Assembly: GCA_039180865.1 (NCBI GenBank)
Contig: JBCDCZ010000001.1
Coordinates: 5,492-69,491 of the forward strand
Direction of reading: 5' to 3'
From: Pseudomonadota bacterium
GTDB taxonomy: Bacteria > Pseudomonadota > Alphaproteobacteria > Rhizobiales > JACESI01
Length of the DNA: 64,000 nt
Shown here: piece by piece, positions 26,589 through 44,116 of the stretch
Layout: the number at the start of each line of letters is the position of its first letter
Position numbering within the stretch: the first letter of the stretch is position 1
Program-made: the position numbers and the translations under genes
The notes under the pieces: generated by a model
The model's input: the letters and a program-made list of their open reading frames with translations, nothing else
The model's database searches: none
What the model was told of the DNA's origin: nothing

Positions 26589-27995
26589 CTACCAGCCAAT
26601 TCCCTGATAGCTCTTAGCCTTGGGCTGTTCCCTGAAAAGCCGCGTTAGATCGACGACATCATGCGCCTCCAGACAGGCGGCAAGTGCGGCAAGCCAATAT
26701 CGACCCGGCTGTGTTGTCACAACGACTTCCGAGCAGGCGAGAAGCTCGCTCACATGTGCAGTCACCCGACCGGAAAGCTTGCGGAGTGTGAGGGCGTCCT
26801 CATGATAATGGTGACGTAGCATCGCCACCTGCCGCATCATGCTCGCCGCATCCGGATAATTCGGATCGTTTATTGAGACCTCAAAACCAAGTTCAATCAG
26901 GCGTCCGGCAAGACGCAGAGACGGGCTTTCACGCAAGTCATCCGTATCGGGCTTGAAGCTAAGGCCACAAAGCCCGACCCGTTTCTTGCCCGTTGCGGCG
27001 ATGAGACGTACAGCTTGTTCGATCTGACAATCATTTGTGTGCGGGAGGCTTTCGATCATTGGCAATTGAAGCCCGCATCGTTCCGCCAGGTGATTGACGG
27101 CGCGGACTTCTTTTGGAAGGCACGATCCGCCATAGGCAAAGCCGGGTTTCAGATAGTGCGGGGAGATGTTGAGGACCGTATCCTGGCAGAAGATCTCCAT
27201 CACTTCGTGGCCGTCGATTTCAAGATGCTGACAGATCCGTCCGATTTCATTACCGAAGCAGACTTTCGCCGCGTGCCAGACATTGTCGGCGTACTTCACC
27301 ATTTCGGCGGCATCGAGTGTGGTGGAGATCGGCATCGGATCAACCGGATCCAGAATACCGGCCAAGGCTGCGGATGCCCTCGCATCGGTCGCACCAATCA
27401 CCGTCTTCGGAGGATTGCGGAAATCATCGATTGCGGTGCTTTCGCGCAAGAATTCCGGATTGAAACACATTCCGAAATCAACCCCTGCCGCCTTCCCTGA
27501 GTGCTCCTCAACAAGGGGCAAGAAAACCTTACGGGTCGTTCCAGGCGGCACTGAACAGCGAAGAACGATTACATGGTAATCGCCTTTATGCCTTAGGGCC
27601 TCGCCGATGCCGGCTGCTACCGCGCGGATCGCCGTCATATCGCAGGACCCGTCTTCCGCAGTTGGCGTGTTTACGGAGACGAACGTGATATCCGAACCGA
27701 GAATGGCAGCGTTCAAATTGGTCGTTGCTTTGATGCGGCCGGCCCCTGCCCCCTTTTCCAGCAGATGATCGAGACCCGGCTCAACAATCGGAGAAACGCC
27801 CGCGCCGAGTTTCCCGATTTTATCTTCGTCGATATCGACACCGATCACATCATGTCCGAGATCCGAAAGGCATGCGGCGGATACAACACCGACATAACCA
27901 AGCCCGATAATACTGATGGCTGGTTTAAAAAAGGTGAGTTCTCTTTCGCCGGCGATATCGGTGGCAAGAAGCGGTGACTTAAGATGAACGTTCAT
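26589..27995 (-). CDS. algD: GDP-mannose 6-dehydrogenase-like enzyme (UDP-glucose/GDP-mannose dehydrogenase family)
   Basis: 468 aa. Rossmann N-terminus IIGLGYVGVVSAACL, an AlgD-like GVSPIVEPGLDHLL segment and the catalytic-Cys motif GFAYGGSCLPKEV. Confidence 0.7.
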   Translation of the reverse strand: MNVHLKSPLLATDIAGERELTFFKPAISIIGLGYVGVVSAACLSDLGHDVIGVDIDEDKIGKLGAGVSPIVEPGLDHLLEKGAGAGRIKATTNLNAAILGSDITFVSVNTPTAEDGSCDMTAIRAVAAGIGEALRHKGDYHVIVLRCSVPPGTTRKVFLPLVEEHSGKAAGVDFGMCFNPEFLRESTAIDDFRNPPKTVIGATDARASAALAGILDPVDPMPISTTLDAAEMVKYADNVWHAAKVCFGNEIGRICQHLEIDGHEVMEIFCQDTVLNISPHYLKPGFAYGGSCLPKEVRAVNHLAERCGLQLPMIESLPHTNDCQIEQAVRLIAATGKKRVGLCGLSFKPDTDDLRESPSLRLAGRLIELGFEVSINDPNYPDAASMMRQVAMLRHHYHEDALTLRKLSGRVTAHVSELLACSEVVVTTQPGRYWLAALAACLEAHDVVDLTRLFREQPKAKSYQGIGW

Positions 27996-28033
27996 GGCGA
28001 ACCTCTTGATTGAAACTAGGATACCCTCCTCGT

Positions 28034-28049
28034 TCCAAGGATCGTGCCA
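28034..28049 (-). promoter_or_regulatory. Possible sigma54-type promoter for the algD-like gene
   Basis: The minus strand reads TGGCACGATCCTTGGA. The -24 element and the spacing are perfect, but the -12 element is TTGG rather than TTGC. It lies about 40 nt upstream of the ATG at 27995. Confidence 0.35.
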
Positions 28050-28123
28050 CGTCGTAAGTCACTGTAAATATTAATTTTTCAAAAATCCAATATAGATCCG
28101 GTCCGCAAATAGGGAATTGGAAA

Positions 28124-28140
28124 TTGCATTTTGCAAATGG
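28124..28140. promoter_or_regulatory. TTGCA-N-TTGCAAATGG motif in the algD-like / kinase divergent region
   Basis: TTGCATTTTGCAAATGG closely resembles the motifs at 34597 and 37987. Confidence 0.35.
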
Positions 28141-28243
28141 ATACCGTTCACGACCAAAACCCGCATGAATACGCGGGAATGTGAGAAGCCCGGGTAATCG
28201 TTTCGCAGTATATTGCTGATAACGTTCTCACCGGGATCAGGTC

Positions 28244-31200
28244 ATGGAACCAGTAATGTCAGAGCGCAAATCCGATTATCGGAAAAGGTTGATCAGGCAC
28301 CTGCTCTCGATTGCTGGCCTTGCAACCAGTATTGGAATTCTGACAGTCTTGCTGATTGACCACCAGTTGGAACGTCAACAGTTCCGACTGATGGTGGAAA
28401 GTGCCGAAAATCAGTCGCGCACAATAACGGCATTTCGAAGCTACTATACGCAGGAAGTCGTTCCGAAAATCCTTGAAAATTCCGATGATCTAACCTTCTC
28501 ACATGACTACCGGGAAAGCAGAAAGACGCTACCGCTTCCAGCGACAGTTACAATCGACATGGGTGCGCTACTTGCTAACACAGAAGGCGATACCGCCTTT
28601 AATCTCATCAGTGACTTTCCGTTCGAGAACCGAAAGGGACGAGTACTAAGTGCTTTCGAGAAGGAAGCCCTCTTGGGGATCATCACCCGCAAAGAAGAGA
28701 CCATCACAGATCTCGATGAAGGCGAGGACGGAAGCCGCATCCTCCAATATGCGGAACCGGTGGTGATGATGCCAGCTTGTGTGGCGTGCCATAACACGCA
28801 TCCCCTATCGCAGAAGAAAGATTGGAAGGTTGGCGATGTTCGCGGCATTCAGACCGTCACCATCAGGGCCACTCCGGAAGCCTTTCGTTCTCTAGAAGAT
28901 TGGTATCCGCTGATTGGATTTTACAGCCTGACGATACTGGGCGTTCTCGCGGCCGTTGCCGGACTATCGGTTCGAAACCAAAGATACATAACCGAGCTGC
29001 AGGACAATGCTGAAAGAGAAAAACAAAGCCGCGCAGATCTGAAAGACATCACCCGGCAATTCATCGAGCTTGAAGAGACGCTGAGCGATGCGATCGCCTC
29101 GCTGCCGGATGGGTTCGTCATCTACGATCGCAACGACCGCCTCGTTATGTGCAACGAGAAATACCGAGAGTTTTACAGTAAGAGCGCAGATCTACTCGTT
29201 CCAGGGCGCACTTTTGAGGAGATCATCCGGCGCGGGGTCGAACGCGGCCAGTATCCGGAAGCGGACGGGCAGGAAGATTCCTGGATTTCCGAACGGCTTG
29301 AGATCCACAAAAGCCCCGTCGCACCGATCGAGCAGAGGCTTGATGATGGTCGATGGCTAAGGATTTTTGAGAGACCAACCAAGCAGGGAGGGATCGTCGG
29401 TTTCCGCGTCGATATTACCGAGCTCAAGCGGCGTGAAATCCAACTTCAAGCCCAACGCGCGCAGTTGGCAGCAACAATCGACACGGCACTCGATGCGATC
29501 ATCATCATTGATTCAAACGGTGTGATCATAGAGTTCAATCCGGCGGCGACGGCCATATTCGGTTACACGCGTGACGAATGCGTTGGGCAGAAGATGAGTG
29601 ATCTGATTGTGCCCGACCGGCATAAAGATGCTCATGAAGCCGGGATGGACAGGTTCAGGCGCACAAGGATCGGCAAGATCCTTGGAACCCGTGTGACGAT
29701 TGAGGCGATTTGCAAGGATGGTTCGGAGATCACAATCGAACTTGCGATCAATCCCGCCGAGGGCGATTCCGGCACGATTTTTGTCGGCTATATGCGAGAC
29801 ATCACGGACGATCTTGCCCAAAAGAAAGCGCTCGAAGAGGCAAAAGAAGCGGCAGAACAAGCGACACAGACAAAAGCGGCCTTTCTCGCCGTCGTGAGCC
29901 ATGAAATCCGCACGCCGCTCAACGGCGTTCTCGGTCTCCTAGATCTGATTGACAGTTCAACGAAAGATGAAAAGGTCAAGAATTACGCAAAAACAGCGAT
30001 TGAGAGCGCTGACGCCCTGGCAACGCTGCTGAACGATATCCTCGATTATACAAAGCTCGAAGAAGGCGAAATCACCGTCATGCAGACGGCTTTCAACTTT
30101 CGCACCTTCGCAGAAGGAACTCTGGATTTGATGCGTCCCCTGGCGCATGAGAAAAACCTCGTCCTCGGTCTGGAGATTGACGAGGCAGTTCCGGCATTCA
30201 TCGTCGAGGACCAGGTCCGCTTGCGGCAGATCGTTCTCAACCTCATCGCGAACGCGATCAAGTTTACCGAGACCGGCAGCGTGCAACTGCGGGCCAAACT
30301 GCTTGATGACGAAGAAGTGCCCCTTCTGTCAATCGAGGTGGAAGATACCGGCATCGGTATCGACGATGAGCATCTTCCTTTGGTCTTCGAGCAGTTCAAA
30401 ACACTGGATACCTCCTATGAACGCAAGGAGGGTGGAACCGGTCTTGGCCTTGCGATTTCCAGAGGTCTTTCCAACTTGTTGGGCGGTCAGCTCAGGGCAA
30501 ACAGCAAACCAGGCGAAGGCAGTACTTTCTCGCTAACACTACCAATATCGAAACCTGATCAAACGCCCGAGGAAGCACATGCCTCCAACATTGGCGAGAT
30601 CAAATTCCGGCTTCTCGAAGGGAGGAAAGTTCTGCTCGCTGAAGACAATCTCACCAACAATCTTGTGATGTCGGATATGCTCGAAAATGAGGGGGCCAGC
30701 GTCACGTCAGTTGCCAACGGCAAAGACGCCTTGATGGAGTGCGAAAAGACCGCATTCGACCTCATTATACTGGATATCTCCATGCCGGTAATGGATGGCA
30801 AAAAATCAGTAAAATTGCTTCGTGAAAAGGGGCACAAAGAACCAATCCTGGCGTTTACCGCCTACACCCAGTCCGAACTCCGCCCGAGTTTCATTGAAGC
30901 AGGCTTCACCGATATCCTGCTGAAGCCGGCGCGGAGGCGGGACCTTGAAGAAGTCATTATGACACTCCACGAGAGCGATCTTTTTGGTCAGCAAGCAAAG
31001 ACGGATGACAACGATAAAAAATCGCCAAGCCCCGAACCTGGCGACATTGATATGACGGAATTTGAACGCGTCATCGCCAGCACATCCGGCGAAATTAGAC
31101 ACCGATTGATTGAAGCCTGCATTGCGGATCTCCAATCCCATACAGAACAAGCAATGAGTGCGGCAGGTGGCGGCAGAACCGAGGATATCAGCCGTCATGC

Positions 31201-31426
31201 CCATGCTATCAAAGGGGTGGCGGCGACCTTCGGGTTTGCGCAGCTCCAGGAGGCGGCAGCGCGTTTGTCAGACGGAACGGTTCACCTGGCACCAAGTGAG
31301 TGGGTCGCGGAAACTCAACACATGTCAGAGATCACGGAAAGAACACGCAATGCGATCAGCACATGGTTTTCGACCAAAAACACTGCATTAGAAGACACAT
31401 CCGATTTTGAGAGCACTTTGTCATGA
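28244..31426 (+). CDS. Hybrid sensor histidine kinase with a periplasmic CxxCH (haem-c type, DUF3365-like) domain, PAS, HisKA, HATPase, REC and Hpt modules
   Basis: 1060 aa. TM1, then a ~180-aa periplasmic segment containing PACVACHNTHP, then TM2. Two PAS-like regions follow, then the H-box (VVSHEIRTPLNG), G-boxes (GTGLGLAIS), a receiver (LLAEDN...DLIILDISMP) and an Hpt (HAHAIKGVAATFG). Confidence 0.85.
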   Translation: MEPVMSERKSDYRKRLIRHLLSIAGLATSIGILTVLLIDHQLERQQFRLMVESAENQSRTITAFRSYYTQEVVPKILENSDDLTFSHDYRESRKTLPLPATVTIDMGALLANTEGDTAFNLISDFPFENRKGRVLSAFEKEALLGIITRKEETITDLDEGEDGSRILQYAEPVVMMPACVACHNTHPLSQKKDWKVGDVRGIQTVTIRATPEAFRSLEDWYPLIGFYSLTILGVLAAVAGLSVRNQRYITELQDNAEREKQSRADLKDITRQFIELEETLSDAIASLPDGFVIYDRNDRLVMCNEKYREFYSKSADLLVPGRTFEEIIRRGVERGQYPEADGQEDSWISERLEIHKSPVAPIEQRLDDGRWLRIFERPTKQGGIVGFRVDITELKRREIQLQAQRAQLAATIDTALDAIIIIDSNGVIIEFNPAATAIFGYTRDECVGQKMSDLIVPDRHKDAHEAGMDRFRRTRIGKILGTRVTIEAICKDGSEITIELAINPAEGDSGTIFVGYMRDITDDLAQKKALEEAKEAAEQATQTKAAFLAVVSHEIRTPLNGVLGLLDLIDSSTKDEKVKNYAKTAIESADALATLLNDILDYTKLEEGEITVMQTAFNFRTFAEGTLDLMRPLAHEKNLVLGLEIDEAVPAFIVEDQVRLRQIVLNLIANAIKFTETGSVQLRAKLLDDEEVPLLSIEVEDTGIGIDDEHLPLVFEQFKTLDTSYERKEGGTGLGLAISRGLSNLLGGQLRANSKPGEGSTFSLTLPISKPDQTPEEAHASNIGEIKFRLLEGRKVLLAEDNLTNNLVMSDMLENEGASVTSVANGKDALMECEKTAFDLIILDISMPVMDGKKSVKLLREKGHKEPILAFTAYTQSELRPSFIEAGFTDILLKPARRRDLEEVIMTLHESDLFGQQAKTDDNDKKSPSPEPGDIDMTEFERVIASTSGEIRHRLIEACIADLQSHTEQAMSAAGGGRTEDISRHAHAIKGVAATFGFAQLQEAAARLSDGTVHLAPSEWVAETQHMSEITERTRNAISTWFSTKNTALEDTSDFESTLS

Positions 31427-32913
31427 TGGATAAGCACATGAACAATAAACGCGTCCTGATCGTCGAAGATACGCCGACGCTTGCAATGATCTACCAAGAC
31501 CAACTCGAGAAAGCAGGGTTTGAAACTGACCTGGCTGAGACAGCCGAGCAGGCACTCAAACGATTGCAAGAGGATGACTTTGTAGTGATGCTTCTCGATC
31601 TCCAATTGCCCGATAGTGATGGTTGCACCGTGCTGGATAGGCTAAGCGAAAGCAAACGCTCACCGGCAACAATCATCATCACCGCACATGGTTCAATCAA
31701 CAAAGCGGTCGAGGCCATGCGGCTCGGCGCGCAGAATTTTCTTATGAAGCCGGTCTCGGAAGCAAAACTCATCGCAGCGGTTGAAAACGCCATCGAGGCG
31801 GATCGGATCGTTCGGACAAGCGACCAAGTCGCGATTACCGAGGCCAGTCCAAAGAAGACTGTTTCCGGACTAATCGGCGACGCACCCGTGATGCAGAATC
31901 TCTCCGCAATGATCGGCTCCATGGCACCGTCCATGGCTCCAGTATTCATTACCGGTGAAAGCGGTACGGGGAAGGAAGTCTGCGCGGAAGCCATCCATCG
32001 CTCCAGTCCCCGTGCCAAAGGCCCTTTCATGGCCGTCAACTGCGCAGCCATTCCGAAAGACCTGATCGAGTCAGAGCTTTTCGGGCACAAGAAAGGATCC
32101 TTCACCGGAGCCACATCCGACCGCAAGGGCGCTGTCATGAGCGCAAGTGGCGGGACTTTGTTTCTCGACGAAATCTGCGAGATGGACATCTCCTTGCAAG
32201 CAAAGCTGCTTCGCTTCCTTCAAACCGGTCAGATCCAACGGGTCGGCGACGATGCAGTCTTCGATGCCGATGTCAGAATCGTCTGCGCGACCAACCGCAT
32301 ACCCGTCACCGAGGTTGCAGAAGGTCGTTTCCGCGAAGACCTCTATTATCGCCTGCACGTTTTGGCTCTTCAGCTTCCAGCTCTCAGAGAACGCGGCAAT
32401 GATGTTGTTAAACTTGCCCAACACTTTCTGAGACGCGCTGCCGAGGTGGAAGGTAAAGCTTTCAACGCCTTCTCTACAGAGGCTCAAGAATGGCTCTTGA
32501 AGCATCCCTGGCCCGGCAATGTGCGGCAGCTTGAAAACCTGATCCGCGCCGTGGTCGTTCTGAACACAGGCGATGCCATCACTGAGGAGATGCTCTCTCG
32601 TGCAATGCCGCCGATACCGCTTGCATCGCAAAACAATCTGGTCGGAACGCCCGGTTTCATCGTGCCACAAAACAGCTCTTCCGCAGCGGGTATTCATGCA
32701 AACTCTGCGAACAGCACCACGCTCACTGATACCAGCATGGTAATCGACTTCGCGCGCCCGTTTCAGGATATCGAGCGCGATATTATCGAGCGGGCGATCG
32801 ACTATTGCCAAGGTTCGTTGCCGAACGCGGCACGATTACTTGGTATGAGCCCGTCAACGCTTTATCGAAAACGTGAAGCATGGGAAAAGGCGCCCGACAA
32901 AGCAAGCGCCTGA
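31423..32913 (+). CDS. NtrC-family sigma54-dependent response regulator (AlgB-like)
   Basis: 496 aa. REC (VLIVEDT...LLDLQLPD), AAA+ with GESGTGKE and the GAFTGA-type loop (ESELFGHKKGSFTGA), and a C-terminal Fis-type HTH (AARLLGMSPSTLYRK). ATGA overlap with the kinase gene. Confidence 0.9.
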   Translation: MMDKHMNNKRVLIVEDTPTLAMIYQDQLEKAGFETDLAETAEQALKRLQEDDFVVMLLDLQLPDSDGCTVLDRLSESKRSPATIIITAHGSINKAVEAMRLGAQNFLMKPVSEAKLIAAVENAIEADRIVRTSDQVAITEASPKKTVSGLIGDAPVMQNLSAMIGSMAPSMAPVFITGESGTGKEVCAEAIHRSSPRAKGPFMAVNCAAIPKDLIESELFGHKKGSFTGATSDRKGAVMSASGGTLFLDEICEMDISLQAKLLRFLQTGQIQRVGDDAVFDADVRIVCATNRIPVTEVAEGRFREDLYYRLHVLALQLPALRERGNDVVKLAQHFLRRAAEVEGKAFNAFSTEAQEWLLKHPWPGNVRQLENLIRAVVVLNTGDAITEEMLSRAMPPIPLASQNNLVGTPGFIVPQNSSSAAGIHANSANSTTLTDTSMVIDFARPFQDIERDIIERAIDYCQGSLPNAARLLGMSPSTLYRKREAWEKAPDKASA

Positions 32914-32924
32914 TACTTTGATGC

Positions 32925-34415
32925 TTAAGCTGCGGCCGTTTTTTCGGCATCCGGATGATCGGTCCGATTGCGACCATAGACATCTTCAAGGCGGATGATG
33001 TCGTCTTCGCCGAAGTATGTCCCGGTCTGAACCTCAATCATAACGATTGGATCGCTGCCGAAGTTCTCCAGCCGGTGCACAGCTCCAAGTGGAATATGGA
33101 CATGGCCACCCGCTTTCAGATGTTGAACATCATCATCAATGGTGACCGTCGCCTCTCCCTGAACGATAATCCAATGCTCGGCACGATATTGGTGCTTTTG
33201 TAATGACAGGCGACCGCCGGGATTAACTTCGATCATCTTCACCTGATGCTGGGTACCATTGTGTAGCGGCGCGAAGCGACCCCACGGGCGCACTTCACCG
33301 GGATGCTTCAAGACCTCAGGCGTCTGCTCGTCTATCATGTGTTGGACACATGTTTTCAACTCGCCCACCCGATCTTTACTGGTCACCAGAACGGCATCTT
33401 TGGTCGAGACAACGATGCAGTCCTCCATCCCAACGACAGTGGTGAGACGATCCGGGCTGTGAACATGGCAATTGCGGTTTTCGTGACCCACCACATTACC
33501 GTGAGTTGAATTGCCGAGATCATCTTTCTCGACCTGGCCCGCAACCGCATCCCAGGTCCCGAGATCGTCCCAGTCGCACTCAAATGGAACGACTGCAACC
33601 CGGCTACTTAACTCCATAACCGCATAATCGATCGAGATCTTGGCAACGGACGCAAAGAATTGCTTGTTTGGTCGAACAATGTGGCCCGCGATTTCGGCTT
33701 TCGAGAGCGCGTTTCGCGTGCCACGAAACAGATCCGGACAAAGCCATGCCGTCTCCCGGAGAAAACTTCTGACCGGGAAGAGAAACATACCGCTGTTCCA
33801 AAAATAATCGCCGCTTGCAAGGAAAGCTTTTGCAACATCTGCAATCGGCTTTTCGATGAAACTTGCCACCTTGTTTGCGGGCAAACTGAAAAGCTGCCTG
33901 CCGCGTTTGATGTAGCCATACTCGGTGGCCGCACGGGTCGGCGTAATTCCAAAGGTAACCAGACGGTTGACTTGCTGAGCCGTGTGCATACCAGACCGGA
34001 CCATCGCATGAAATGCGTCCTGATCACTGATGACCTGATCGCTTGGGAAAACCGCCATAAGATCACTGTCGCGTAAAAAGTCCGAACAATAGTGGGCGGC
34101 GATCACGATAGCAGCAGCCGTATCACGCGAACACGGTTCCGCAATGATCACTCGTGGTTCAATACCGATCTCCGCAAGCTGCGCCTCGGCAAGCATGCGA
34201 TGCCCTTCACCGACGACGACAACTGGACACTCGAAAAGCTCCGGCTCAGAGCAACGCTTCACCGTGTGCTGAAAAAGCGAAAGTGCGCCATCAAGCTTGA
34301 TAAAGGGCTTCGGACAATCGGGTCGGGACACCGGCCAAAGCCGGACGCCGGACCCACCTGCAAGAATGACTGGAACAATTCTAGCCGTCTGTTTTGAGCT
34401 TGTTGAATTGATCAT
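32925..34415 (-). CDS. Bifunctional mannose-1-phosphate guanylyltransferase / mannose-6-phosphate isomerase (AlgA/ManC type)
   Basis: ORF 32925..34457. The ATG at 34415 follows an AGGAGG RBS. It has the IVPVILAGGSGVRLWPVSR nucleotidyltransferase motif and a C-terminal type II PMI cupin (RPWGRF...GRLSLQKHQYRAEHWIIVQGEA). Confidence 0.85.
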   Translation of the reverse strand: MINSTSSKQTARIVPVILAGGSGVRLWPVSRPDCPKPFIKLDGALSLFQHTVKRCSEPELFECPVVVVGEGHRMLAEAQLAEIGIEPRVIIAEPCSRDTAAAIVIAAHYCSDFLRDSDLMAVFPSDQVISDQDAFHAMVRSGMHTAQQVNRLVTFGITPTRAATEYGYIKRGRQLFSLPANKVASFIEKPIADVAKAFLASGDYFWNSGMFLFPVRSFLRETAWLCPDLFRGTRNALSKAEIAGHIVRPNKQFFASVAKISIDYAVMELSSRVAVVPFECDWDDLGTWDAVAGQVEKDDLGNSTHGNVVGHENRNCHVHSPDRLTTVVGMEDCIVVSTKDAVLVTSKDRVGELKTCVQHMIDEQTPEVLKHPGEVRPWGRFAPLHNGTQHQVKMIEVNPGGRLSLQKHQYRAEHWIIVQGEATVTIDDDVQHLKAGGHVHIPLGAVHRLENFGSDPIVMIEVQTGTYFGEDDIIRLEDVYGRNRTDHPDAEKTAAA

Positions 34416-34448
34416 GACAAACCTCCTTGTTGGTTTGCCTAATGGTCC

Positions 34449-34463
34449 GCAATTCACAGGCCA
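34449..34463 (-). promoter_or_regulatory. sigma54-type (-24/-12) promoter for the algA-like gene
   Basis: The minus strand reads TGGCCTGTGAATTGC, with GG and GC at the canonical spacing. It lies about 34 nt upstream of the ATG at 34415. Confidence 0.5.
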
Positions 34464-34553: not shown

Positions 34554-34568
34554 TTGCAAAACGCAAAT
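34554..34568. promoter_or_regulatory. TTGCA-type motif copy (degenerate)
   Basis: TTGCAAAACGCAAAT lies between the two divergent sigma54-type promoters. Confidence 0.3.
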
Positions 34569-34596: not shown

Positions 34597-34609
34597 TTGC
34601 AAATTGCAA
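34597..34609. promoter_or_regulatory. TTGCAAATTGCAA palindromic motif (candidate activator or operator site)
   Basis: Two self-complementary TTGCAA hexamers separated by 1 nt, about 30 bp upstream of the -24 element at 34640. The same 13-mer recurs at 37987. Confidence 0.4.
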
Positions 34610-34639: not shown

Positions 34640-34655
34640 TGGCATGGCGTTTGCT
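34640..34655 (+). promoter_or_regulatory. sigma54-type (-24/-12) promoter for the alg44-like operon
   Basis: TGGCATGGCGTTTGCT compared with the consensus TGGCACG-N4-TTGCW. It lies about 65 nt upstream of the ATG at 34721. Confidence 0.6.
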
Positions 34656-34720
34656 GATCTAAGGGCGAAGTCATTCTGCAACACGGCCCTGAAAACGCCG
34701 TGAAAGCGAAAGAGGCTGTT

Positions 34721-36334: not shown

Positions 36335-37940
36335 TTTCGAAGCCCGTCTTGAGGCACTGAAGCTCGAGCAAACCACCAGCATCGACGATCCGACGGACTG
36401 GCGCGGAGGATGGCACAAGTGGACACCTTTGGTGCTGTTGAAGGTCGCAATCTACTTTGCCTGTTGCCTGATCGGCATTCTGACCATCCCCAATGTGATA
36501 TGGGACATCGAGGCGAAAGTGTTCACACTCGTCATCGGCGGCCTTGGAATATGGCGCTATGGCTGGTGGTTCACTCATGCCGTTCGCGCTTTCATTTACG
36601 GACGGTTTGTCTATCCGAAAATGCGCGAAGCTGCCCATGAGATCTGGGATCGCGGGTGGCGGCCGCGGCACCTCCACTTCATGATGACAACCTACAAAGA
36701 GCACCGCACGATCACCGAAATGGTTGTGAGATCCATCGTAAACGAGATCACGGAATCGGGGGTGCCCGGAACGATCTGGCTCGGCTCATCGGACCGTTTC
36801 GACGAAGACATCATCTCAGACTTTCTCTTGCGCGAGGCGCAGGACGTGGATGTGACTTTGCGGATCATCCGCCAAAATATTTCCGGAAAACGCGCTGCTA
36901 TCGGCCTGGTCCTTCGGGCGATGAACAGGCTGCCGGTCGATAAGGATGACCTCGTCATTTTCATGGATGGCGACTTTATTCTTGATCAGGGCGCGGTCAG
37001 CCGCTGCTTGCCGCTTTTCAAGCTTTACCCGGACCTGCAGGCCTGCACGACGGATGAGGAGGTCATCTGCATCGGTCCGCGGTGGATCGAAAACTGGCTG
37101 AAGATGCGGTTTGCACAAAGACGCCTGGCCATGCAGTCGCATGCCTTATCGGGCCGTGTCCTGACCTTGACTGGCCGGATGTCCGTCTTCCGCGCAAGAC
37201 ACTTGCTTAGGCTTGAATTCATCCGTCTCCTGGAAGCCGATCACCTGTCGCACTGGCTTTGGGGCACATTCCGCTTCTTGTCCGGCGATGACAAAAGCAC
37301 CTGGTACTACATGATGAAGCACAAGGCCCATATGCGCTACGTCCCAGATGCCATGGGCTACACTGTCGAAGTCATCGAAGGGTCCGGCCTGGAGCGCATG
37401 GTCCAGAACTTCCGGCGCTGGTCTGGCAACATGCTGAGAAACGGCGCCCGCGCAATCGCACTTGGCCCGCGTCACATGCCCTTTTTCATCTGGTGGTGCC
37501 TGATCGATCAGCGCCTTTCCATGTGGACTATGCTTGTCAGTCCGGTGCTTGCGGTTTCTGCGACCTTTATCGTCGGTCCCGCATATCTTCTATCTTATGT
37601 GATCTTCATAGCTGTCAGCCGCATGTTGCTGTCATTGTTCCTCTTTAGCTATTCGCGGCGGGTCATTCTCCATTATCCGTGGATCCTTTATTTCAATCAG
37701 CTCATAAATGCGGCCGTAAAAGTCTATTGCATCTTCCGACTATCGAAACAGAGATGGTCAAACAGGGGCAACCAGAGTGCCGGTCTCGATGGTGGATCGC
37801 TTGTCGAGCTCGCACGCAATACAATGGCACAATGGTGCACGGCCGTGGCGGTCGCTCTGCTCTTCCTCGGCACGATCCATTACACGCGTCTGATCGATCC
37901 GCCTTCTTTTAAAATGCTCGCAGATATCACCGGCCTCTGA
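36318..37940 (+). CDS. alg8: Alg8-like family-2 glycosyltransferase (processive polysaccharide synthase)
   Basis: ORF 36303..37940, overlapping the alg44-like stop. Segments recalled as Alg8-typical are GIWRYGWW, MRFAQRRLAMQSHALSGRVLTLTGRMSVFRA, FLSGDDKSTW, RRWSGNMLRN, LIDQRLSMWT and YFNQLINAAVKVYCIFRLSKQRW. Confidence 0.75.
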   Translation: MARTSDFEARLEALKLEQTTSIDDPTDWRGGWHKWTPLVLLKVAIYFACCLIGILTIPNVIWDIEAKVFTLVIGGLGIWRYGWWFTHAVRAFIYGRFVYPKMREAAHEIWDRGWRPRHLHFMMTTYKEHRTITEMVVRSIVNEITESGVPGTIWLGSSDRFDEDIISDFLLREAQDVDVTLRIIRQNISGKRAAIGLVLRAMNRLPVDKDDLVIFMDGDFILDQGAVSRCLPLFKLYPDLQACTTDEEVICIGPRWIENWLKMRFAQRRLAMQSHALSGRVLTLTGRMSVFRARHLLRLEFIRLLEADHLSHWLWGTFRFLSGDDKSTWYYMMKHKAHMRYVPDAMGYTVEVIEGSGLERMVQNFRRWSGNMLRNGARAIALGPRHMPFFIWWCLIDQRLSMWTMLVSPVLAVSATFIVGPAYLLSYVIFIAVSRMLLSLFLFSYSRRVILHYPWILYFNQLINAAVKVYCIFRLSKQRWSNRGNQSAGLDGGSLVELARNTMAQWCTAVAVALLFLGTIHYTRLIDPPSFKMLADITGL

Positions 37941-37986: not shown

Positions 37987-38003
37987 TTGCAAATTGCAAA
38001 TGG
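37987..38003. promoter_or_regulatory. TTGCAAATTGCAAATGG motif in the alg8-like / SGNH intergenic region
   Basis: Exact repeat of the 13-mer at 34597 and closely similar to 28124..28140. It lies in a 159-bp gap inside the otherwise tightly packed operon. Confidence 0.4.
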
Positions 38004-38099
38004 CACGAAGCCACACTCAGAAATAATCCAAATATTTCAATGAATTAAATCTGGCTCACCCTTTGCACACCTGAACCTAAAAGCGATTTGAGGTGTGCC

Positions 38100-39389
38100 A
38101 TGCGAAAATCGATAAAACGAGGCCGACTTTATTCGGCAATGCTTCTGACAGCCTTCTGCGCGGGATTTATGCCATTCATCTTCAACGTCGTTGTCGACCC
38201 CTACGACATGAATGATGTGGTCGATCTCGACCTGGACAAGTTCAAGGTGAGCGAACCTGCCCATTATCCGCTTTGGAAGATGATTCATTTTCCGAAGAAA
38301 GGCCACGAGGCCGTGGTGCTCGGCGACAGTCGCGCCCGGGCTCTCAGGGAAAAACTCTGGCGCAGTCTGGGTGCAGACACATACAACTTCGCCTATGGCG
38401 GGGCGACGATCTACGAGATCTTCGACACATTCGAGCATGTCAAAGATACGCCCAACCTGAAAACGCTTGTCGTCGGATTGCCGTTGCGCAGTTTCGATCC
38501 GGCACACCGCCGTGGCCTCAATCGAGTGCCGGAGGCAATCGAACTCTCAAGAAATCCTTTTGCCTACTACAAGAGCTGGTTTGTCGCGAAAATCGGTTGG
38601 CGCAATCTTGAAAGGCGCTATCCGGAGAATGTCGCGAGGCTTAGGAACTTAGCCTCTCCCATCTTCGCGGAAGCGAAGGCTTTCGGTCTTAAGGATCCTG
38701 CAAAAGCACCTCTTACAGATTTACTGAACCCGGACGTCTGCGAAGGATGTGATCTGCCGGATCACGTCAAGGCAGTTCCCCATCCAATTGTTGCGAGGCG
38801 GCTCAACTTCGGAACCGGTCGCGGCCTTGGTCTGTGGGACGAAGCATGGCCTCCGATTGCGATTTCGCGGGAGCTGCCAAGGAAATTTGAAAGGCAGGTC
38901 CGCAAGAACGGCCGGAACGACTGGGAAGGTTTCAAGTTTTCCGAGGAGCTGTTTGCCAAAATCGCAGCGATTGCAGAATGGAGCAAAGCCAACAACGTCA
39001 AACTGGTTTTTGTCATCCCGCCAACAATTCCGGAGATGCAGGAGCGCATGTCCAGATATGGTTGGTCCGGGCTGAACAACCGGTTCCGCCTTCGTTTGGC
39101 TGAGCTTGCACCGGTTTTCGATTTCGATTTCGACAGCCCCCTTACGCGCGACCTGTCCCAGTTCACCGACGCCTATCATTTTAAAGGTAAAGCCGCCAAA
39201 GCGATGGTCGGCGAGATCCTTCAATTGGTGTCCGATGACCGCAAGGTCGTCGCCAGAGCGCGTAAGAGGCGCTCGGAAATTGTCTGCCCCATATCGGAAA
39301 GCGACCAGGTCACCGACCAGGTGAGCGATGGGATCGTTGAGATGAAACAGGGCGTCTCCTGCCGCATTTGGAGGTGGAGCCATGACTAG
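38100..39389 (+). CDS. Membrane-anchored SGNH-like protein (AlgJ/AlgX/DltD-type O-acetylation partner)
   Basis: ORF 38088..39389. The ATG at 38100 follows a GAGGTG RBS. N-terminal TM, a GDS block (AVVLGDSRARAL) and a DxxH block (FTDAYHF). It lies close upstream of an MBOAT gene (one gene, the Sel1-repeat gene, intervenes). Confidence 0.55.
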   Translation: MRKSIKRGRLYSAMLLTAFCAGFMPFIFNVVVDPYDMNDVVDLDLDKFKVSEPAHYPLWKMIHFPKKGHEAVVLGDSRARALREKLWRSLGADTYNFAYGGATIYEIFDTFEHVKDTPNLKTLVVGLPLRSFDPAHRRGLNRVPEAIELSRNPFAYYKSWFVAKIGWRNLERRYPENVARLRNLASPIFAEAKAFGLKDPAKAPLTDLLNPDVCEGCDLPDHVKAVPHPIVARRLNFGTGRGLGLWDEAWPPIAISRELPRKFERQVRKNGRNDWEGFKFSEELFAKIAAIAEWSKANNVKLVFVIPPTIPEMQERMSRYGWSGLNNRFRLRLAELAPVFDFDFDSPLTRDLSQFTDAYHFKGKAAKAMVGEILQLVSDDRKVVARARKRRSEIVCPISESDQVTDQVSDGIVEMKQGVSCRIWRWSHD

Positions 39390-40590
39390 ACGTGCCAGAA
39401 ATCGCCTCCTCGCAATCAGCGTTGCAATCTTGTTTGCCGGGGGAGCAGGCCTGTGGGCTGCGTCTCATGTTGAAGGCGACAACGAAAGTGTCCGCTACCC
39501 GCCAAATGATCCGAAAATCGTTCGCGCGGTCCGCAAAGCGCGATCCTTGCAAAAGTCCGGGCAACTTAAAGATGCGGTCATTGAACTGGAACGCCTCGTC
39601 ACACGAGGGGATCCGACCGCAATGTATTATTTGGCGATGGCCCACGAGAAAGGCTGGGGGATCTCTCCTGATCTAGAAGAGATGCGAACCCTTCTGCAGG
39701 CGGCGGTGGAATATGAGTTCGACCTCCGCGGTCAGACTGCCTACAAGCTTGGGCGTCTCTATCAATTGGCAAGTGAAGCGGACTGTCAGAAAATCGCCGT
39801 CGCGTGGTTCCAGAAGGCCCTACAGTGGAACTACCCAAAGGCACATATGCAATTGGCCAGCCACTACGAACGTGGGATTGGGATCAAGCAGGATCTGGAT
39901 CTTGCAATTTACCACTTCGAAGAGGCGGCAGACGCAGGGTTCGAAACCGCGTCTCTTTCTTTCGCTCGATCCCTGGTCAAAGGGCGCTTCAAGAAGCGTT
40001 ATGACGCGTCTCGTGCCCTCGCCTTGGCAAACCGTGCAGTCCTTGCCTACGAGATCAAAGCTTCGAACGGCTCTGGCACTGCTGCGAAAGTTCTCGGTCG
40101 TTTGTATCGAGATGGCGAATTCGTCGATCAGAACGATGCGCAGGCACTCTACTGGTTTCGTCGCTCAAGCTTACTTGGCGACACCGGCGGCATGCATGAA
40201 CTCGGCCTTTTTCTCATCGCTGTCTCAACTACGCTTGAGACCGATGCTAGATGGAACGAAGGCCTGAGTTGGCTTGAGAAAGCCGCTTCGCTCAGCCACG
40301 GCGGCGCGATGACGGCGCTCGGACGCCTCCACCTCAAGGAAGAGCGCGATCTCAAAAAAGACGACGCCCCCCAATGGTTCGAAAAAGGGGTGGCGACCGG
40401 TCATGGCGGATCGATGGAAGAGCTCGCCAGGCTCAAGGCGGCAGGTGAACTCGTCCCTCACGATTTACCAGGTGCAATAGTCCTTGCGGAAAAGGGCGCC
40501 AATCTCGGTCACGCCGGGTCGCGCAAACTCTTGAAGAAGCTACAGGCGGCTGAGGAAACCAAGCCCCTGTCTCTTCTGAAAAAATCCTGA
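39382..40590 (+). CDS. Sel1-like repeat (SLR/TPR) protein, AlgK-like
   Basis: 402 aa with an N-terminal signal-anchor and at least 6 Sel1-type repeats (e.g. GDPTAMYYLAMAHEKGWGI, YPKAHMQLASHYERGIGI, GGMHELG, HGGAMTALGRLH). 8-nt overlap with the previous gene. Confidence 0.7.
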   Translation: MTRRARNRLLAISVAILFAGGAGLWAASHVEGDNESVRYPPNDPKIVRAVRKARSLQKSGQLKDAVIELERLVTRGDPTAMYYLAMAHEKGWGISPDLEEMRTLLQAAVEYEFDLRGQTAYKLGRLYQLASEADCQKIAVAWFQKALQWNYPKAHMQLASHYERGIGIKQDLDLAIYHFEEAADAGFETASLSFARSLVKGRFKKRYDASRALALANRAVLAYEIKASNGSGTAAKVLGRLYRDGEFVDQNDAQALYWFRRSSLLGDTGGMHELGLFLIAVSTTLETDARWNEGLSWLEKAASLSHGGAMTALGRLHLKEERDLKKDDAPQWFEKGVATGHGGSMEELARLKAAGELVPHDLPGAIVLAEKGANLGHAGSRKLLKKLQAAEETKPLSLLKKS

Positions 40591-40616
40591 CAATCGAGTG
40601 AGTAAGGAGAAGCGCA

Positions 40617-42119
40617 ATGGTCTTCAGTTCGCTTGAATTTATCTACCTGTTCTTACCTCCGGTTCTCACAGGTTTTTTGATCTTAAGGTGGCTCGGAACC
40701 GAAAAGGGAATCATATGGTGGCTGATCGCTGCATCGCTCGCATTTTACGCGTGGTGGAGCCCGATCCACCTTGTCCTCCTGATGGCGTCGGTCGCTTCCA
40801 ATTTCGCGCTCCACAAGATCATCCTGAAGACTAAGAGTACCACAGTGCTTGCGGTCGGGATTATCGGTAATCTCGCAACCCTCGCTTACTTCAAATACGC
40901 TGATTTTCTAATCGGCAGTTTAAATCCGGTCCTTGGCACGGATCTCGCGATGATGAACATCGTCCTGCCGCTCGCGATTTCGTTCTTCACCTTCCAGCAG
41001 ATATCGTTTCTGTACGATACCTATCGGGGTGACATCGCCGATTGTGGTTTCGCGAAATATTGCCTTTTCGTTGTCTTCTTTCCGCAATTGATCGCCGGTC
41101 CGATCGTACTGCAGAAGGACACAATCCCGCAATTCCGGCTCGCGATCTTTCAAAGCCGGGTCTTCGTGAACCTTTCGGTTGGCGGCACCCTATTCGTCAT
41201 AGGCCTCTTCAAGAAAATCGTTTTCGCTGACGGCGTTGCGCCAGTCGCCAACACGGTTTTCGGTCTTGCAGATAGCGGCGAAGCCGTCCCGCTAGAAGCG
41301 GCCTGGATCGGTGCCCTCGCCTATACACTGCAGATCTATTTCGACTTTTCGGGTTATTGCGATATGGCGCTGGGCCTTGCACGCATGTTCGGCATCCGTT
41401 TGCCGATCAATTTCAACTCCCCCTATAAGTCAAAATCTATTGTCGAATTCTGGCGCCGCTGGCACATCACGCTCTCCCGCTTTTTGCGCGACTACCTGTA
41501 CATTCCGCTCGGCGGAAACAAGCAGGGCAAAGGGCGCCGCTACTTCAACCTGATGGCGACGATGGTCCTTGGCGGGCTCTGGCACGGTGCAGCCTGGACC
41601 TTTGTCTTCTGGGGGCTCCTGCACGGCTTCTACCTCATCATCAATCACGCCTGGAGCGCCATCTCGCGCGACTTCGAGGAGCTTGCCGTCATCCCGCGAC
41701 CAGTCCGCGTCCTCTTTGCCCAAAGCCTCACCATGCTGGCCGTCGTCGTCGCTTGGGTTTTCTTCAGAGCGGAAACTTTCGGCGGCGCGCTTTCGATCCT
41801 TCAGGGCATGACCGGACTAACAGACGGCGTGAATAAGGCGCTTTGGAAAGACCTGATGCTTCAAAGCGCAAACCACTGGGCGGTTATCGCATGTTTGTTT
41901 GCTGTCGTCTTTGTCGCGCCGAACAGCATCGAGATTTTGCGCAACTACCGTCCTGTCACCGAGTTGAGAGCCGCGCTCCAAAATGCCGGCAAAGTCCGGC
42001 GGATTGTCTGGCGCGCCTCACCTGGATGGGGGCTTGTCGCGGCGGGCCTGACGCTTGTTGCGGTGATCCAGGTCTACCGTCTCGAGAACATGACGGAGTT
42101 CATCTACTTCAATTTCTAA
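40617..42119 (+). CDS. algI: MBOAT-family O-acyltransferase (AlgI/DltB type)
   Basis: 500 aa, polytopic. Signature FWRRWHITLSRFLRDYLYIPLGGN containing the conserved His. Confidence 0.85.
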   Translation: MVFSSLEFIYLFLPPVLTGFLILRWLGTEKGIIWWLIAASLAFYAWWSPIHLVLLMASVASNFALHKIILKTKSTTVLAVGIIGNLATLAYFKYADFLIGSLNPVLGTDLAMMNIVLPLAISFFTFQQISFLYDTYRGDIADCGFAKYCLFVVFFPQLIAGPIVLQKDTIPQFRLAIFQSRVFVNLSVGGTLFVIGLFKKIVFADGVAPVANTVFGLADSGEAVPLEAAWIGALAYTLQIYFDFSGYCDMALGLARMFGIRLPINFNSPYKSKSIVEFWRRWHITLSRFLRDYLYIPLGGNKQGKGRRYFNLMATMVLGGLWHGAAWTFVFWGLLHGFYLIINHAWSAISRDFEELAVIPRPVRVLFAQSLTMLAVVVAWVFFRAETFGGALSILQGMTGLTDGVNKALWKDLMLQSANHWAVIACLFAVVFVAPNSIEILRNYRPVTELRAALQNAGKVRRIVWRASPGWGLVAAGLTLVAVIQVYRLENMTEFIYFNF

Positions 42120-42133
42120 GGGCATGAATAAAA

Positions 42134-44116
42134 ATGAAAACTCGCATGTCCTTAGCGAGGGCGAGCGCTTGGCACATCTTGATGCTCGCCCTCATCCTCA
42201 GTCCTTACTGTTCACCCGTAGGGGCTGAGGACAGTTTACCCGGCTACGAAATTGCGCTCAAAGGCAAGAAAACAAGCTTCAATACCCATACTGGAAAACT
42301 AACAATCCGCGGCATCAGCCGCAAAGGACTGGTATCCGCCCAACGTCGGAGCAATCTCCTTCTCAGCCGCTATTTCGAAGACGGTGGCTTTCGCGAGACC
42401 GTTGAGCTTAATGGAGAGATACTCGTTGACGGTCGAGATACGAGCGACATAGCCCGGGTATCCGGGTTTCGCACCGATCGCGACGGTTCCTTCGTCTACG
42501 TCCGAATAACAAAAGGGCCGGACGGCCAGGTGACGCTTGTGCAGGATGGCGATCCGGTACTGACCTGGCGACGAAACAGTCGGATCAGCATCCTGTCTTA
42601 TGACCGCAAGAGCCTCGTTACGGCCGAATATGATCAGGCCCGCCAGCGTACCGTTTTTTTGCGCTATATGCGCCTTGAGAACGGTCGAATATCATCTGAG
42701 CCCCAGCCAATTGGCGCTTTAGAAGACTGCGCTTTGTTGGGTGCGCGGATCACGAAAACGTCTATCATCGCTCAAACCTATTGCGACCCATCAAAGGGAA
42801 GTGACCTCGTCGAGATTAGCCTTGAGACGGGGGAGCAGAGCGGGATCGCTGCGGGTTCCGCCGATGAGATGATATCTCCGATCAGGCCACGCGAAAAAGG
42901 CGCAATCTCCGTTCTTACGATTGATGGCAATCCCAATGGCAAGCAAGCCTTTCATGCAATAGCAGGACTTTTCCTTTCCTCGCTTGGAGAACCGATGTCA
43001 CTTGCCTCTGACGAGGCCGGGCGCCAGAGCTGGGCGCAAAGCTACCGGACAAGAACACTCGGACTGCTCTTTGAGAAGACCGGGCACCCAGTGTTCGCAT
43101 CACTCGCGACTCGCGCGATGACCAACACGCTCATGCAGGATAACCGAAGGCTGGGCCTGACAGGCCCATTCAATCCGTCTTGCGCATGGGCGTCCCGGAT
43201 TTACTCACAAGACGGCAAGTCACCGGTTTCATTCCTCGTCAATCAGGCGATGATTGCCTCAGCCCTGACACGTACCTGCGAACGCCTTGGTACGTCCTGT
43301 CCATCGAAGCTTAAAGCGGCCATTGAACGAAAAAACCGTTGTCTGATCGCGGCCTATGAACCGCATTTCGATCACAAGCACGGACTCTACCGGATACAAT
43401 ATGGCGCACCCTTTCGGTTCGATGGGATATGGGCGCCCTGGAACTGGCAAATGAGCCTGCTACCGGTCCTTGTGAACGTTGCCCGTTCTCAGGAAAACGA
43501 CACTCTAAAAAACCGTGCTGCAAGTATCGCAAACCGGTTCGTTGAGAGCTGGAGCGAGCAAGAAAACGGTGTCACTTGGCGTTATTGGCCTCGCCCCTAT
43601 TACGACGGATGGCAGAGCGAAGACCGAATATCGCAGAACAGACCGGAGCAACGAACACACATTCCGAAACGGTTCGAAGACACCAACCATGCCGGGATTA
43701 GTCTGCTTGGGCTGGCGGATTCGGGGTATCGAAACGCACTACCTGAATCGATGGCAGACGGGCTCACCAGACGGATCGATACGCTGATTGAAGCCGTTCC
43801 GGGAAGCCCACGTGATCTCGACGGGCAAGGACCGAGGAGCCCGCAATGGATTCCGGGTGGGGGCTTCGCGGCATTTGCTACGGACGAATTGGATAAACTC
43901 TATGCAGCGAAGTTACCTGCAAGCGTTTCATCGGATCAGCATCTTGCCTATGCCATGCTTTTCGATCCGAAAGAACCGTTCGATCTTAGGATAGAACTGC
44001 GCCAGTGCGATGAGACTGGATGCTCGACACGAGTCGATAAGCGCTACAATTCCGTTTCAGATTTTCTGTCCGACAACCCGCTCTTTACAATCCGTCGCCT
44101 TAAAACCGGACGATAA
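42134..44116 (+). CDS. Secreted 660-aa protein of unknown function, last gene of the EPS operon
   Basis: Signal peptide (ILMLALILSPYCSPVGAED). No motif I can assign. The 14-nt gap after the MBOAT gene implies co-transcription. Confidence 0.6.
   Translation: MKTRMSLARASAWHILMLALILSPYCSPVGAEDSLPGYEIALKGKKTSFNTHTGKLTIRGISRKGLVSAQRRSNLLLSRYFEDGGFRETVELNGEILVDGRDTSDIARVSGFRTDRDGSFVYVRITKGPDGQVTLVQDGDPVLTWRRNSRISILSYDRKSLVTAEYDQARQRTVFLRYMRLENGRISSEPQPIGALEDCALLGARITKTSIIAQTYCDPSKGSDLVEISLETGEQSGIAAGSADEMISPIRPREKGAISVLTIDGNPNGKQAFHAIAGLFLSSLGEPMSLASDEAGRQSWAQSYRTRTLGLLFEKTGHPVFASLATRAMTNTLMQDNRRLGLTGPFNPSCAWASRIYSQDGKSPVSFLVNQAMIASALTRTCERLGTSCPSKLKAAIERKNRCLIAAYEPHFDHKHGLYRIQYGAPFRFDGIWAPWNWQMSLLPVLVNVARSQENDTLKNRAASIANRFVESWSEQENGVTWRYWPRPYYDGWQSEDRISQNRPEQRTHIPKRFEDTNHAGISLLGLADSGYRNALPESMADGLTRRIDTLIEAVPGSPRDLDGQGPRSPQWIPGGGFAAFATDELDKLYAAKLPASVSSDQHLAYAMLFDPKEPFDLRIELRQCDETGCSTRVDKRYNSVSDFLSDNPLFTIRRLKTGR

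Follow-up and report, generated by a model that had tools for sequence, protein, structure and literature searches.

An Alg8/Alg44-type locus for a probable polyuronate exopolysaccharide on a putative 20.4-kb tRNA-Arg island of an alphaproteobacterium

What polymer would be made by a gene set that encodes relatives of the alginate polymerase Alg8 and of its partner Alg44 and that is devoid of the porin, the epimerase and the lyase of the Pseudomonas system? The question is raised by ten genes within a 64-kb stretch of DNA (64,000 nt, analysed as a whole and hereafter called the window) from contig JBCDCZ010000001.1 (positions 5,492 to 69,491; assembly GCA_039180865.1) of an alphaproteobacterium of the Rhizobiales; the nearest named relative is Coralliovum pocilloporae (Hyphomicrobiales). 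We consider it probable that these genes belong to a 20.4-kb tRNA-Arg island that encodes an Alg8/Alg44-type system for a poly-uronic acid exopolysaccharide, with O-acetylated poly-beta-1,4-mannuronate as the most probable product.

The glycosyltransferase (GT2 family) of the locus, called Alg8-like in a first-pass annotation of the DNA, was compared with Alg8 of a P. aeruginosa locus recovered from a metagenome scan (L003), which served as the reference and whose AlgD is 100% identical to PDB 1mfz. The two polymerases share 38% identity over 443 amino acids (aa) with two gaps (blastp, E 3e-98 to 4e-99), and profile-profile comparison by hhalign gave a probability of 100% and an E value of 7e-85. 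The motifs DGD (222-224), GDDKS (328-332) and RRW (371-373) of the window protein are in register with those of Alg8, in which the DxD, DDK and RW residues are essential according to published mutagenesis. None of the solved GT2 enzymes in the PDB (the synthases of cellulose, including BcsA, and of chitin and hyaluronan) was matched at E<0.01. Single-sequence searches of the PDB with the GT2 and with the Alg44-like protein gave no match; the homology came from profiles and from the P. aeruginosa reference. At E<=0.001, no more than 534 proteins were matched among 1.84 billion representatives in a library, and the relatives of Alg8 therefore form a small, well-separated family. The window protein did not fall outside the Alg8 clade, and on its alignment and motifs we regard it as a true Alg8 homologue, as annotated.

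The enzymes for the precursor point in the same direction. The dehydrogenase matched AlgD (PDB 1mfz) with an E value of 6e-113, whereas the best UDP-glucose dehydrogenase reached 2e-76. The window enzyme shares 45% of 442 aa with P. aeruginosa AlgD and has kept the catalytic GGSCLPK. As proposed in the first-pass annotation, it groups with AlgD and not with the UDP-glucose dehydrogenases. Likewise, the assignment of the second gene to an AlgA-type bifunctional mannose-1-phosphate guanylyltransferase/mannose-6-phosphate isomerase (GMP/PMI) was borne out by TIGR01479, the score of which (512 bits) exceeds the cutoff (373). Among 81 related loci from other genomes, the AlgD-type gene lies within 10 kb of the synthase gene in at least 36 and the GMP/PMI gene in at least 32, both counts being lower bounds with many contigs ending early.

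The gene for the polymerase shares 32 nt with the end of the gene for the putative co-polymerase, which had been described as an Alg44-like protein composed of a PilZ domain, a transmembrane helix and an HlyD-type adaptor. This description holds over the whole length of the protein: although its identity to Alg44 is only 22% by BLAST, comparison with Alg44 family profiles gave a probability of 99.4% and an E value of 1.6e-21 for a full-length match, and among the PDB matches listed (60 of 89) the only PilZ entries were Alg44 chains. Translation probably begins at M8 (34721). The PilZ motifs RxxxR and (D/N)xSxxG are kept in 24 to 25 of 25 orthologues, and the domain would be expected to bind c-di-GMP (cyclic di-GMP) and to gate synthesis. 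About 150 residues of the window protein (about 235-390) have no counterpart in P. aeruginosa Alg44. This insertion can be aligned with the alpha-hairpin of EmrA (PDB 4tko, E 7e-16) and contains a motif of the RLS/RLT type, RxxxLxxxxxxT (R301/L305/T312). Among 61 sequences, the R is conserved in 60, the L in 56 and the S/T in 36. In MacA, AcrA and HlyD, this motif is the tip that binds TolC (PMC3391258).

All ten open reading frames (ORFs) from 26589 to 44116 are intact and closely packed, and the intergenic spacing of 0 to 248 nt therefore leaves room for no additional gene within the locus (Table 1). The ORFs and their domains (Pfam, NCBIfam) agreed with the first-pass annotation and every peptide motif quoted there was located in its ORF; the ORF map also bore out that the gene order is unlike that of Pseudomonas and Azotobacter, that the precursor genes are divergent and that a kinase/activator pair is inserted.

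Table 1. Positions in the window of the genes, repeats and candidate regulatory elements of the locus
Feature	Position	Strand	Evidence or remark
AlgD-like GDP-mannose 6-dehydrogenase	26589-27995	-	SPIVEPGL, GGSCLPKEV; AlgD match
Hybrid histidine kinase	28244-31426	+	Pfam domains
REC / sigma-54 AAA+ / HTH_8 activator (LuxO/NtrC-like)	31423-32913	+	Sigma54_activat
AlgA-type GMP/PMI	32925-34457	-	TIGR01479
Alg44-like co-polymerase: PilZ (RRHHR, DWSLGG), one transmembrane helix, HlyD-type adaptor	34700-36334	+	Profile match
Alg8-like GT2 polymerase (TGRMSVFRA, GDDKSTW, RRWSGNMLRN)	36303-37940	+	Alg8 homology
433-aa SGNH-type protein, DUF1574-like, membrane-anchored, periplasmic	38088-39389	+	GDS(R), DxxH
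Sel1-repeat protein, N-terminal transmembrane anchor	39382-40590	+	Sel1 E 8.5e-25
MBOAT acyltransferase, AlgI/DltB-type	40617-42119	+	PF03062 E 4.8e-35
660-aa propeller-toroid protein, secreted, periplasmic	42134-44116	+	AlphaFold model; no family match
RTX calcium-repeat protein with DUF4114 lectin-like domain	44175-46202	-	Within tRNA repeats, beyond 26589-44116
Left direct-repeat copy, 60 nt: orphan tRNA-Arg 3' fragment + 12 nt flank, distal att-like	26229-26288		
Intact tRNA-Arg(CCT) gene	46638-46714	-	
Right direct-repeat copy: tRNA-Arg 3' 48 nt + 12 nt flank	46626-46685		
Sigma-54-like -24/-12 element TGGCACGATCCTTGGA, upstream of algD-like gene	28034-28049	-	-12 GC = GG; weakest of the four
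LuxO-type palindrome TTGCATTTTGCAA, candidate activator site, algD/kinase intergenic	28124-28136		Palindrome match
Two LuxO-type palindromes upstream of alg44-like promoter	34554-34566, 34597-34609		Palindrome match
Sigma-54 -24/-12 element TGGCATGGCGTTTGCT for alg44-like/alg8-like genes	34640-34655	+	Motif match
LuxO-type palindrome TTGCAAATTGCAA, upstream of second operon	37987-37999		Palindrome match
Sigma-54 -24/-12 element TGGCTCACCCTTTGCA for 433-aa, Sel1, MBOAT and 660-aa genes	38052-38067	+	Motif match
Sigma-54-like element TGGCATTTCTCTTGCC, 49 nt upstream of RTX gene	46252-46267	-	Weaker element

The locus is more than a chance assembly, because the cassette recurs in at least 60 of the 81 related loci. 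Patterns of the GT2 matched at least 571 stretches in a species-representative genome collection, and the taxa were taken from the best 80. Carriers among the Alphaproteobacteria are Pelagibius, Denitrobaculum, Cohaesibacter, Anderseniella, Hoeflea, Emcibacter, Sneathiella and Roseibium/Labrenzia, including cultured type strains, and those among the Gammaproteobacteria are Colwellia, Bermanella and Kangiella. The order Alg44-like, GT2, SGNH, Sel1 and MBOAT, followed in some cases by the 660-aa gene, is kept in 63 to 76 of the 81 loci; this core order is stable, whereas the precursor and regulator genes vary in position among loci. Far from being a one-off locus, the cassette is found widely among marine Alphaproteobacteria and also in some Gammaproteobacteria. 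In the literature, including that on Roseibium, Labrenzia, Cohaesibacter, Pelagibius and the roseobacters, we found no characterised equivalent and no product.

Within the wider Alg8 family, the polymerase itself varies in architecture. In some synthases, the C terminus is extended by a PL14 polysaccharide-lyase domain (E 9.5e-58), and one representative has a weak match to a beta-helix of the pectate-lyase/epimerase-like type (representatives P0213 and P0202). PL14 would act on polyuronates (alginate or glucuronan) according to CAZy. About 30 representatives are 850 to 960 aa long and have C-terminal halves without assignment; that they are Alg8-Alg44 fusions was supported neither by blast nor by Pfam.

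Acetylation of the product is suggested by two genes of the second operon. The MBOAT protein matched PF03062 and reached 157 bits with the DltB model, which is under the cutoff of that model. The conserved gene set also includes the 433-aa protein, which has an N-terminal anchor and in which GDS(R) (79-82) and DxxH (361-364) do not vary among 24 orthologues. Weak matches to DUF1574, a member of the SGNH clan, were obtained for 16 of the 24 family members, the best with an E value of 1.8e-4 and below the gathering score. AlgI/AlgJ-X, WssH/WssI, PatA/PatB and DltB/DltD likewise pair a polytopic MBOAT with an anchored SGNH-type protein (Ser/Asp/His triad); in contrast to these, the window protein lies in or near DUF1574, a family for which neither a function nor a structure is known (PMC9487903). 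The 433-aa protein was also considered as AlgX/AlgJ, but hhalign against the AlgX family gave a probability of 5%, its profile had no meaningful match in the PDB, and the ALGX model of Pfam, which detected P. aeruginosa AlgX at 6.8e-81, matched no protein of the locus. Of the AlgI-type MBOAT with SGNH partner that had been annotated, the MBOAT and the SGNH-type motifs therefore stand, and the partner does not appear to be a relative of AlgJ/AlgX. The 433-aa protein is presumed to be an SGNH-type O-acetyltransferase partner of the MBOAT.

The Sel1-repeat protein had been called AlgK-like. The repeats are indeed there, but the likeness to AlgK (hhalign probability 94%) covers only 160 repeat columns, the protein has a transmembrane anchor and no lipobox, and a lipobox was present in only 1 of 61 orthologues. 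Judged by these features, the protein is no outer-membrane lipoprotein of the AlgK type, and the annotation holds for the repeats and not for the identity as AlgK.

Other proteins of the alginate system are missing altogether. With AlgE, AlgG, AlgX, AlgK and AlgL (342 residues) as queries, tblastn returned nothing in the window or in the 81 loci, profile comparison for the missing proteins was likewise negative, and no locus protein has a lyase or beta-helix domain of Pfam. The absence of AlgE, AlgG and AlgL noted in the first-pass annotation was thus confirmed, and for a gene such as algF there is no space. From this gene content, we infer an acetylated, unepimerised mannuronan as the product. 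Some related loci (L126, L136, L146, L151 and L154) are minimal cassettes made up of Alg44-like, GT2, AlgD and RTX genes, in some cases with AlgA and the kinase/activator pair, and are without the MBOAT, SGNH, Sel1 and 660-aa genes. By their gene content, these minimal cassettes imply a product that would be unacetylated in some lineages.

The last gene of the second operon, left unassigned in the first-pass annotation, encodes a 660-aa protein with 77 homologues, all of them unnamed and without Pfam matches; we regard these proteins as a new family. Its AlphaFold model (pLDDT 93.4) consists of a beta-propeller (~34-261) and an (alpha/alpha)6 toroid (~263-605). Fold searches with the full-length model returned mostly generic beta-propellers, and those with the toroid alone returned remote matches (TM score 0.45-0.53, E about 1e-3), which include GH76, GH88, GH105, the cellulose-operon GH8 enzyme CMCax and AGE epimerases. 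AlgL/PL5 was not within the top 50 fold matches, and AlgE, AlgG, AlgK and AlgX were ruled out as identities of the protein by profile comparison. On the strength of the predicted fold, the 660-aa protein is a candidate for a polymer-processing enzyme.

The locus also carries what appears to be its own control. The motif TGGCAC-N5-TTGCW is matched at four places in the window, three of which directly precede the algD-like, alg44-like and 433-aa genes. When the element was sought family-wide as GG-N10-GC with up to two mismatches (background 0.05 per 270 nt), it was found upstream of the Alg44-like gene in 64 of 75 loci, of the 433-aa gene in 38 of 66 and of the RTX gene in 20 of 43. The palindrome TTGCA-W3-TGCAA, which we take to be the form of a LuxO binding site, has four matches in the window compared with 0.52 expected, all of them 30 to 90 nt upstream of promoters of the locus; it recurs family-wide at the same positions, in 30/74 (Alg44-like), 20/65 and 16/37 loci (background 0.018 per 300 nt). 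The activator matched Sigma54_activat (E 3e-67), has LuxO as its best model (531 bits, under the cutoff) and carries a GAFTGA-type loop (GSFTGA at residue 225). The kinase is built from a transmembrane helix, a periplasmic Tll0287-like domain, a second transmembrane helix, two PAS domains, HisKA, HATPase, REC and Hpt. The Tll0287-like domain (residues 38-219) has the c-type haem motif CVACH, and CxxCH is found in 24 of 33 orthologues, which points to control of polymer production by a redox or gas signal. With a kinase, an activator, sigma-54 boxes and activator sites, the locus therefore has its own phosphorelay-to-sigma-54 switch besides the PilZ gate.

The genes are framed by two direct repeats derived from tRNA-Arg. 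The copies are identical at 57 of 60 positions and spaced by 20,397 bp, and they enclose exactly the ten locus genes and the divergently oriented RTX/DUF4114 gene. A 33-nt exact core of the repeat occurs twice in the window with 0 occurrences expected, and the 436 bp adjoining the tRNA are non-coding. Orthologues of the RTX protein, with DUF4114 between RTX repeats, adjoin the cassette in 42 of the 81 loci, including the minimal clusters (examples are L144:6173-8068 and L151:13260-15194). DUF4114 was proposed to be a Ca2+-dependent sugar-binding domain in PilY1.1 of M. xanthus and was shown to be the part of an Acanthamoeba adhesin that binds mannose (PMC9109919, PMC11934332). The most economical reading of the RTX protein is that of a secreted matrix protein that would bind the polymer.

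Several observations weigh against the interpretation given above, and they concern the product, the promoters, the export route and the island. As to the product, 38% identity to Alg8 leaves donor and linkage unfixed, the 433-aa protein had no Pfam match above threshold, and the fold matches of the 660-aa protein fail to separate a hydrolase, a lyase, an epimerase and a binding protein. As to the promoters, the element of the algD-like gene is mismatched at its -12 GC. An Alg8-family system could instead make a polymer other than mannuronan, built from another GDP-sugar or from mixed uronic acids, or a polymer epimerised by an enzyme other than AlgG, for example, by the 660-aa toroid protein; the term alginate-type would then apply to the machinery alone. 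This would be in line with the position of the window clade, which branches deeply within a star-like family (37-38% identity to the Pseudomonas cluster, compared with 40-47% for other clades), with the resemblance of the toroid to sugar epimerases of the AGE family, and with the variable fusions in the family (PL14 lyase domain, weak beta-helix match). However, the synthase gene is consistently accompanied by AlgD-type and GMP/PMI genes, the PL14 fusion partner would itself be expected to act on polyuronates, and the same reaction is favoured by the catalytic motifs shared with Alg8 and by an alignment almost free of gaps. We therefore hold a product other than mannuronan to be decidedly improbable and retain polymannuronate as the likely polymer.

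As to export, the RLS motif is short and variable at its third position, and the window encodes no outer-membrane component, so that the polymer could remain periplasmic or cell-bound. There is no TolC-family gene in the 64-kb window, and neither the island nor the 10-kb flanks on either side of the 81 loci contained a gene for an outer-membrane protein; clustering the ORFs of these 81 neighbourhoods for a further conserved gene, e.g., a porin, gave shadow ORFs only. If the polymer was not freely secreted, it would be a periplasmic or envelope glycan, or a porin encoded outside the island would be needed. Apart from the missing outer-membrane gene, the Sel1 protein without lipobox and the anchoring of the accessory proteins in the inner membrane would fit this. 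On the other hand, the hairpin of the Alg44-like protein bears the TolC-binding motif, the co-located, secreted and lectin-like RTX protein suggests an extracellular target, and related synthase-dependent systems all export their product (PMC7112194). Retention in the envelope or dependence on an outside porin is therefore, in our view, very unlikely. Since a hairpin with a TolC-binding motif is present and a porin is not, we propose that the synthase is coupled to a TolC-family channel encoded elsewhere; of all steps of the model, this coupling is the least secure.

As to the island, none of the island ORFs contains an integrase-like domain, base composition does not deviate (GC 0.51-0.56 throughout), and a tRNA near the cassette was seen in 5 of 49 loci of other genomes, which is not above chance. 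An exact look-up of the flanking proteins gave no empty site and no close strain. Thus, the placement on an island in the first-pass annotation is upheld by the tRNA-Arg direct repeats but not by base composition. The repeat might also not mark a boundary but stem from a local duplication of the tRNA or from a lost element, with the locus being ancestral. Such an origin would explain why there is neither an integrase nor an insertion sequence and why GC is flat, and the same gene order is found on the contig of the closest relative. We nevertheless rate it as fairly unlikely: the repeat extends 12 nt past the 3' end of the tRNA, its copies enclose exactly the co-regulated gene set, the genes flanking the window locus do not travel with the cassette in the 81 other genomes, and the cassette is found in Alpha- and Gammaproteobacteria at similar identity. 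For an island, the lack of an integrase and the flat GC are therefore the signature of an old or integrase-less element.

How does the locus compare with known systems? With the alginate system of Pseudomonas and Azotobacter (algD-8-44-K-E-G-X-L-I-J-F-A), it has in common homologous Alg8 (38%), Alg44, AlgD and AlgA, an MBOAT of the AlgI class and a periplasmic protein of the Sel1/TPR type. In contrast to that system, it is without the AlgE porin, AlgG, the PL5 lyase AlgL, a homologue of AlgX/AlgJ and AlgF, its alg44-alg8 order is reversed, its precursor genes are divergent, and it has additional genes for the propeller-toroid and RTX-DUF4114 proteins. Its Alg44-like protein differs from that of Pseudomonas by the RLS/RLT alpha-hairpin of about 150 residues, its Sel1 protein is anchored by a transmembrane helix, whereas AlgK is a lipoprotein, and its SGNH partner has the canonical S...DxxH order and is of the DUF1574 type, unlike AlgJ/AlgX. 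Control also differs: in Pseudomonas, the algD promoter is under the control of AlgU, whereas the window locus has sigma-54 promoters and a kinase/activator pair of its own.

Alg8 clusters outside Pseudomonas have been catalogued before. In 2020, Bundalovic-Torma et al. listed computationally defined "atypical alginate operons", for example, of Dinoroseobacter shibae, Alcanivorax and Nitratiruptor, one of them alphaproteobacterial, in which, as in the window locus, algK/E and part of the modification genes are missing; for the D. shibae cluster, AlgF/AlgJ/AlgX-type genes and no Alg44 are given, unlike in the window (PMC7112194). In the text of that survey of 1,733 genomes that was searched, the window cassette was not found (PMC7112194). 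None of the atypical operons is known to have been characterised experimentally. A different comparison is offered by the adaptors EmrA, HlyD and MacA, which work with TolC: the periplasmic part of the window protein aligns to EmrA and shares the RxxxLxxxxxxS/T tip (PMC3391258), but its partner in the inner membrane is a GT2 synthase and not an ABC, MFS or RND transporter, it has a cytoplasmic PilZ domain, and a TolC-family gene is not linked. The core finding is what a specialist in exopolysaccharides would expect from the domain content. This variant is set apart by an Alg44 with a hairpin, an SGNH partner of the DUF1574 type, a propeller-toroid protein, an RTX lectin, sigma-54/LuxO-like control and its tRNA island, and by the lack of porin, epimerase and lyase.

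These data lead to the following model, in which the homologies, motifs, synteny, promoter and activator sites and att-like repeats are observed, and the nature of the polymer, its acetylation, the binding of c-di-GMP, the way of export and what the 660-aa and RTX proteins do are deduced. The AlgA-like and AlgD-like enzymes would supply GDP-mannuronic acid, which the Alg8-like GT2 would polymerise at the inner membrane together with the Alg44-like protein, the PilZ domain making the reaction dependent on c-di-GMP. In the periplasm, the MBOAT and the anchored DUF1574-type SGNH protein would acetylate the chain, with the Sel1 protein as a putative scaffold, and the propeller-toroid protein may trim or clear polymer as AlgL or BcsZ does elsewhere. 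The alpha-hairpin of the Alg44-like protein would link the synthase to a TolC-family channel in the outer membrane that is encoded elsewhere. Outside the cell, the secreted RTX-DUF4114 protein, probably co-regulated with the other genes, would be likely to bind the polymer. Expression would be switched on by the hybrid kinase, the periplasmic c-type-haem sensor of which would govern phosphorylation of the LuxO/NtrC-like activator and, hence, transcription from the sigma-54 promoters. A much wider proposal is that the locus represents a porin-less class of synthase-dependent secretion, in which a c-di-GMP-gated GT2 is docked directly to a shared TolC-family channel via the hairpin of an Alg44-type adaptor, a propeller-toroid enzyme is included, a Ca2+-dependent RTX-DUF4114 lectin organises a polymannuronate matrix, and the whole is carried on a mobile, tRNA-targeting island under a haem-sensor phosphorelay. 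We put this forward tentatively, as a possibility that is on balance doubtful.

The surroundings of the repeats are of a different kind. On the left, three tandem cassettes of FecR and TonB-dependent transducer genes, one with a gene for an extracytoplasmic function (ECF) sigma factor, are found at 4573-12313 and 21562-25513, with TonB, ExbB and PepSY_TM genes nearby at 13284-21116; by its domains, this flank looks like an iron/siderophore uptake cluster. Directly beyond the tRNA-Arg gene, 47017-50565 (-) encodes a fusion of MFS transporter, acyltransferase and AMP-binding domains of the Aas-like lysophospholipid recycling type. Five co-directional genes at 53952-59065 (-), for a ThiF-family enzyme, a GNAT acetyltransferase and three proteins without Pfam match, may be a cluster for the modification of a small molecule or peptide.

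The biology of bacterial alginate rests almost wholly on Pseudomonas and Azotobacter. The cassette described here is a related polyuronate machine that has a reduced and different set of accessories and is common in marine Alphaproteobacteria. It makes testable how a synthase-dependent system functions without a dedicated porin and what roles the DUF1574, DUF4114-RTX and propeller-toroid families play, and its self-contained module of kinase, activator and sigma-54 promoters should make it easy to switch on experimentally in cultured strains. The carriers include several cultured species of Roseibium/Labrenzia, and for some of these an association with corals and algae is on record in the literature. 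Should acetylated polymannuronate indeed be the product, an alginate-like polymer would have a so far unrecognised marine source in these bacteria, and they would offer a natural route to unepimerised mannuronan.

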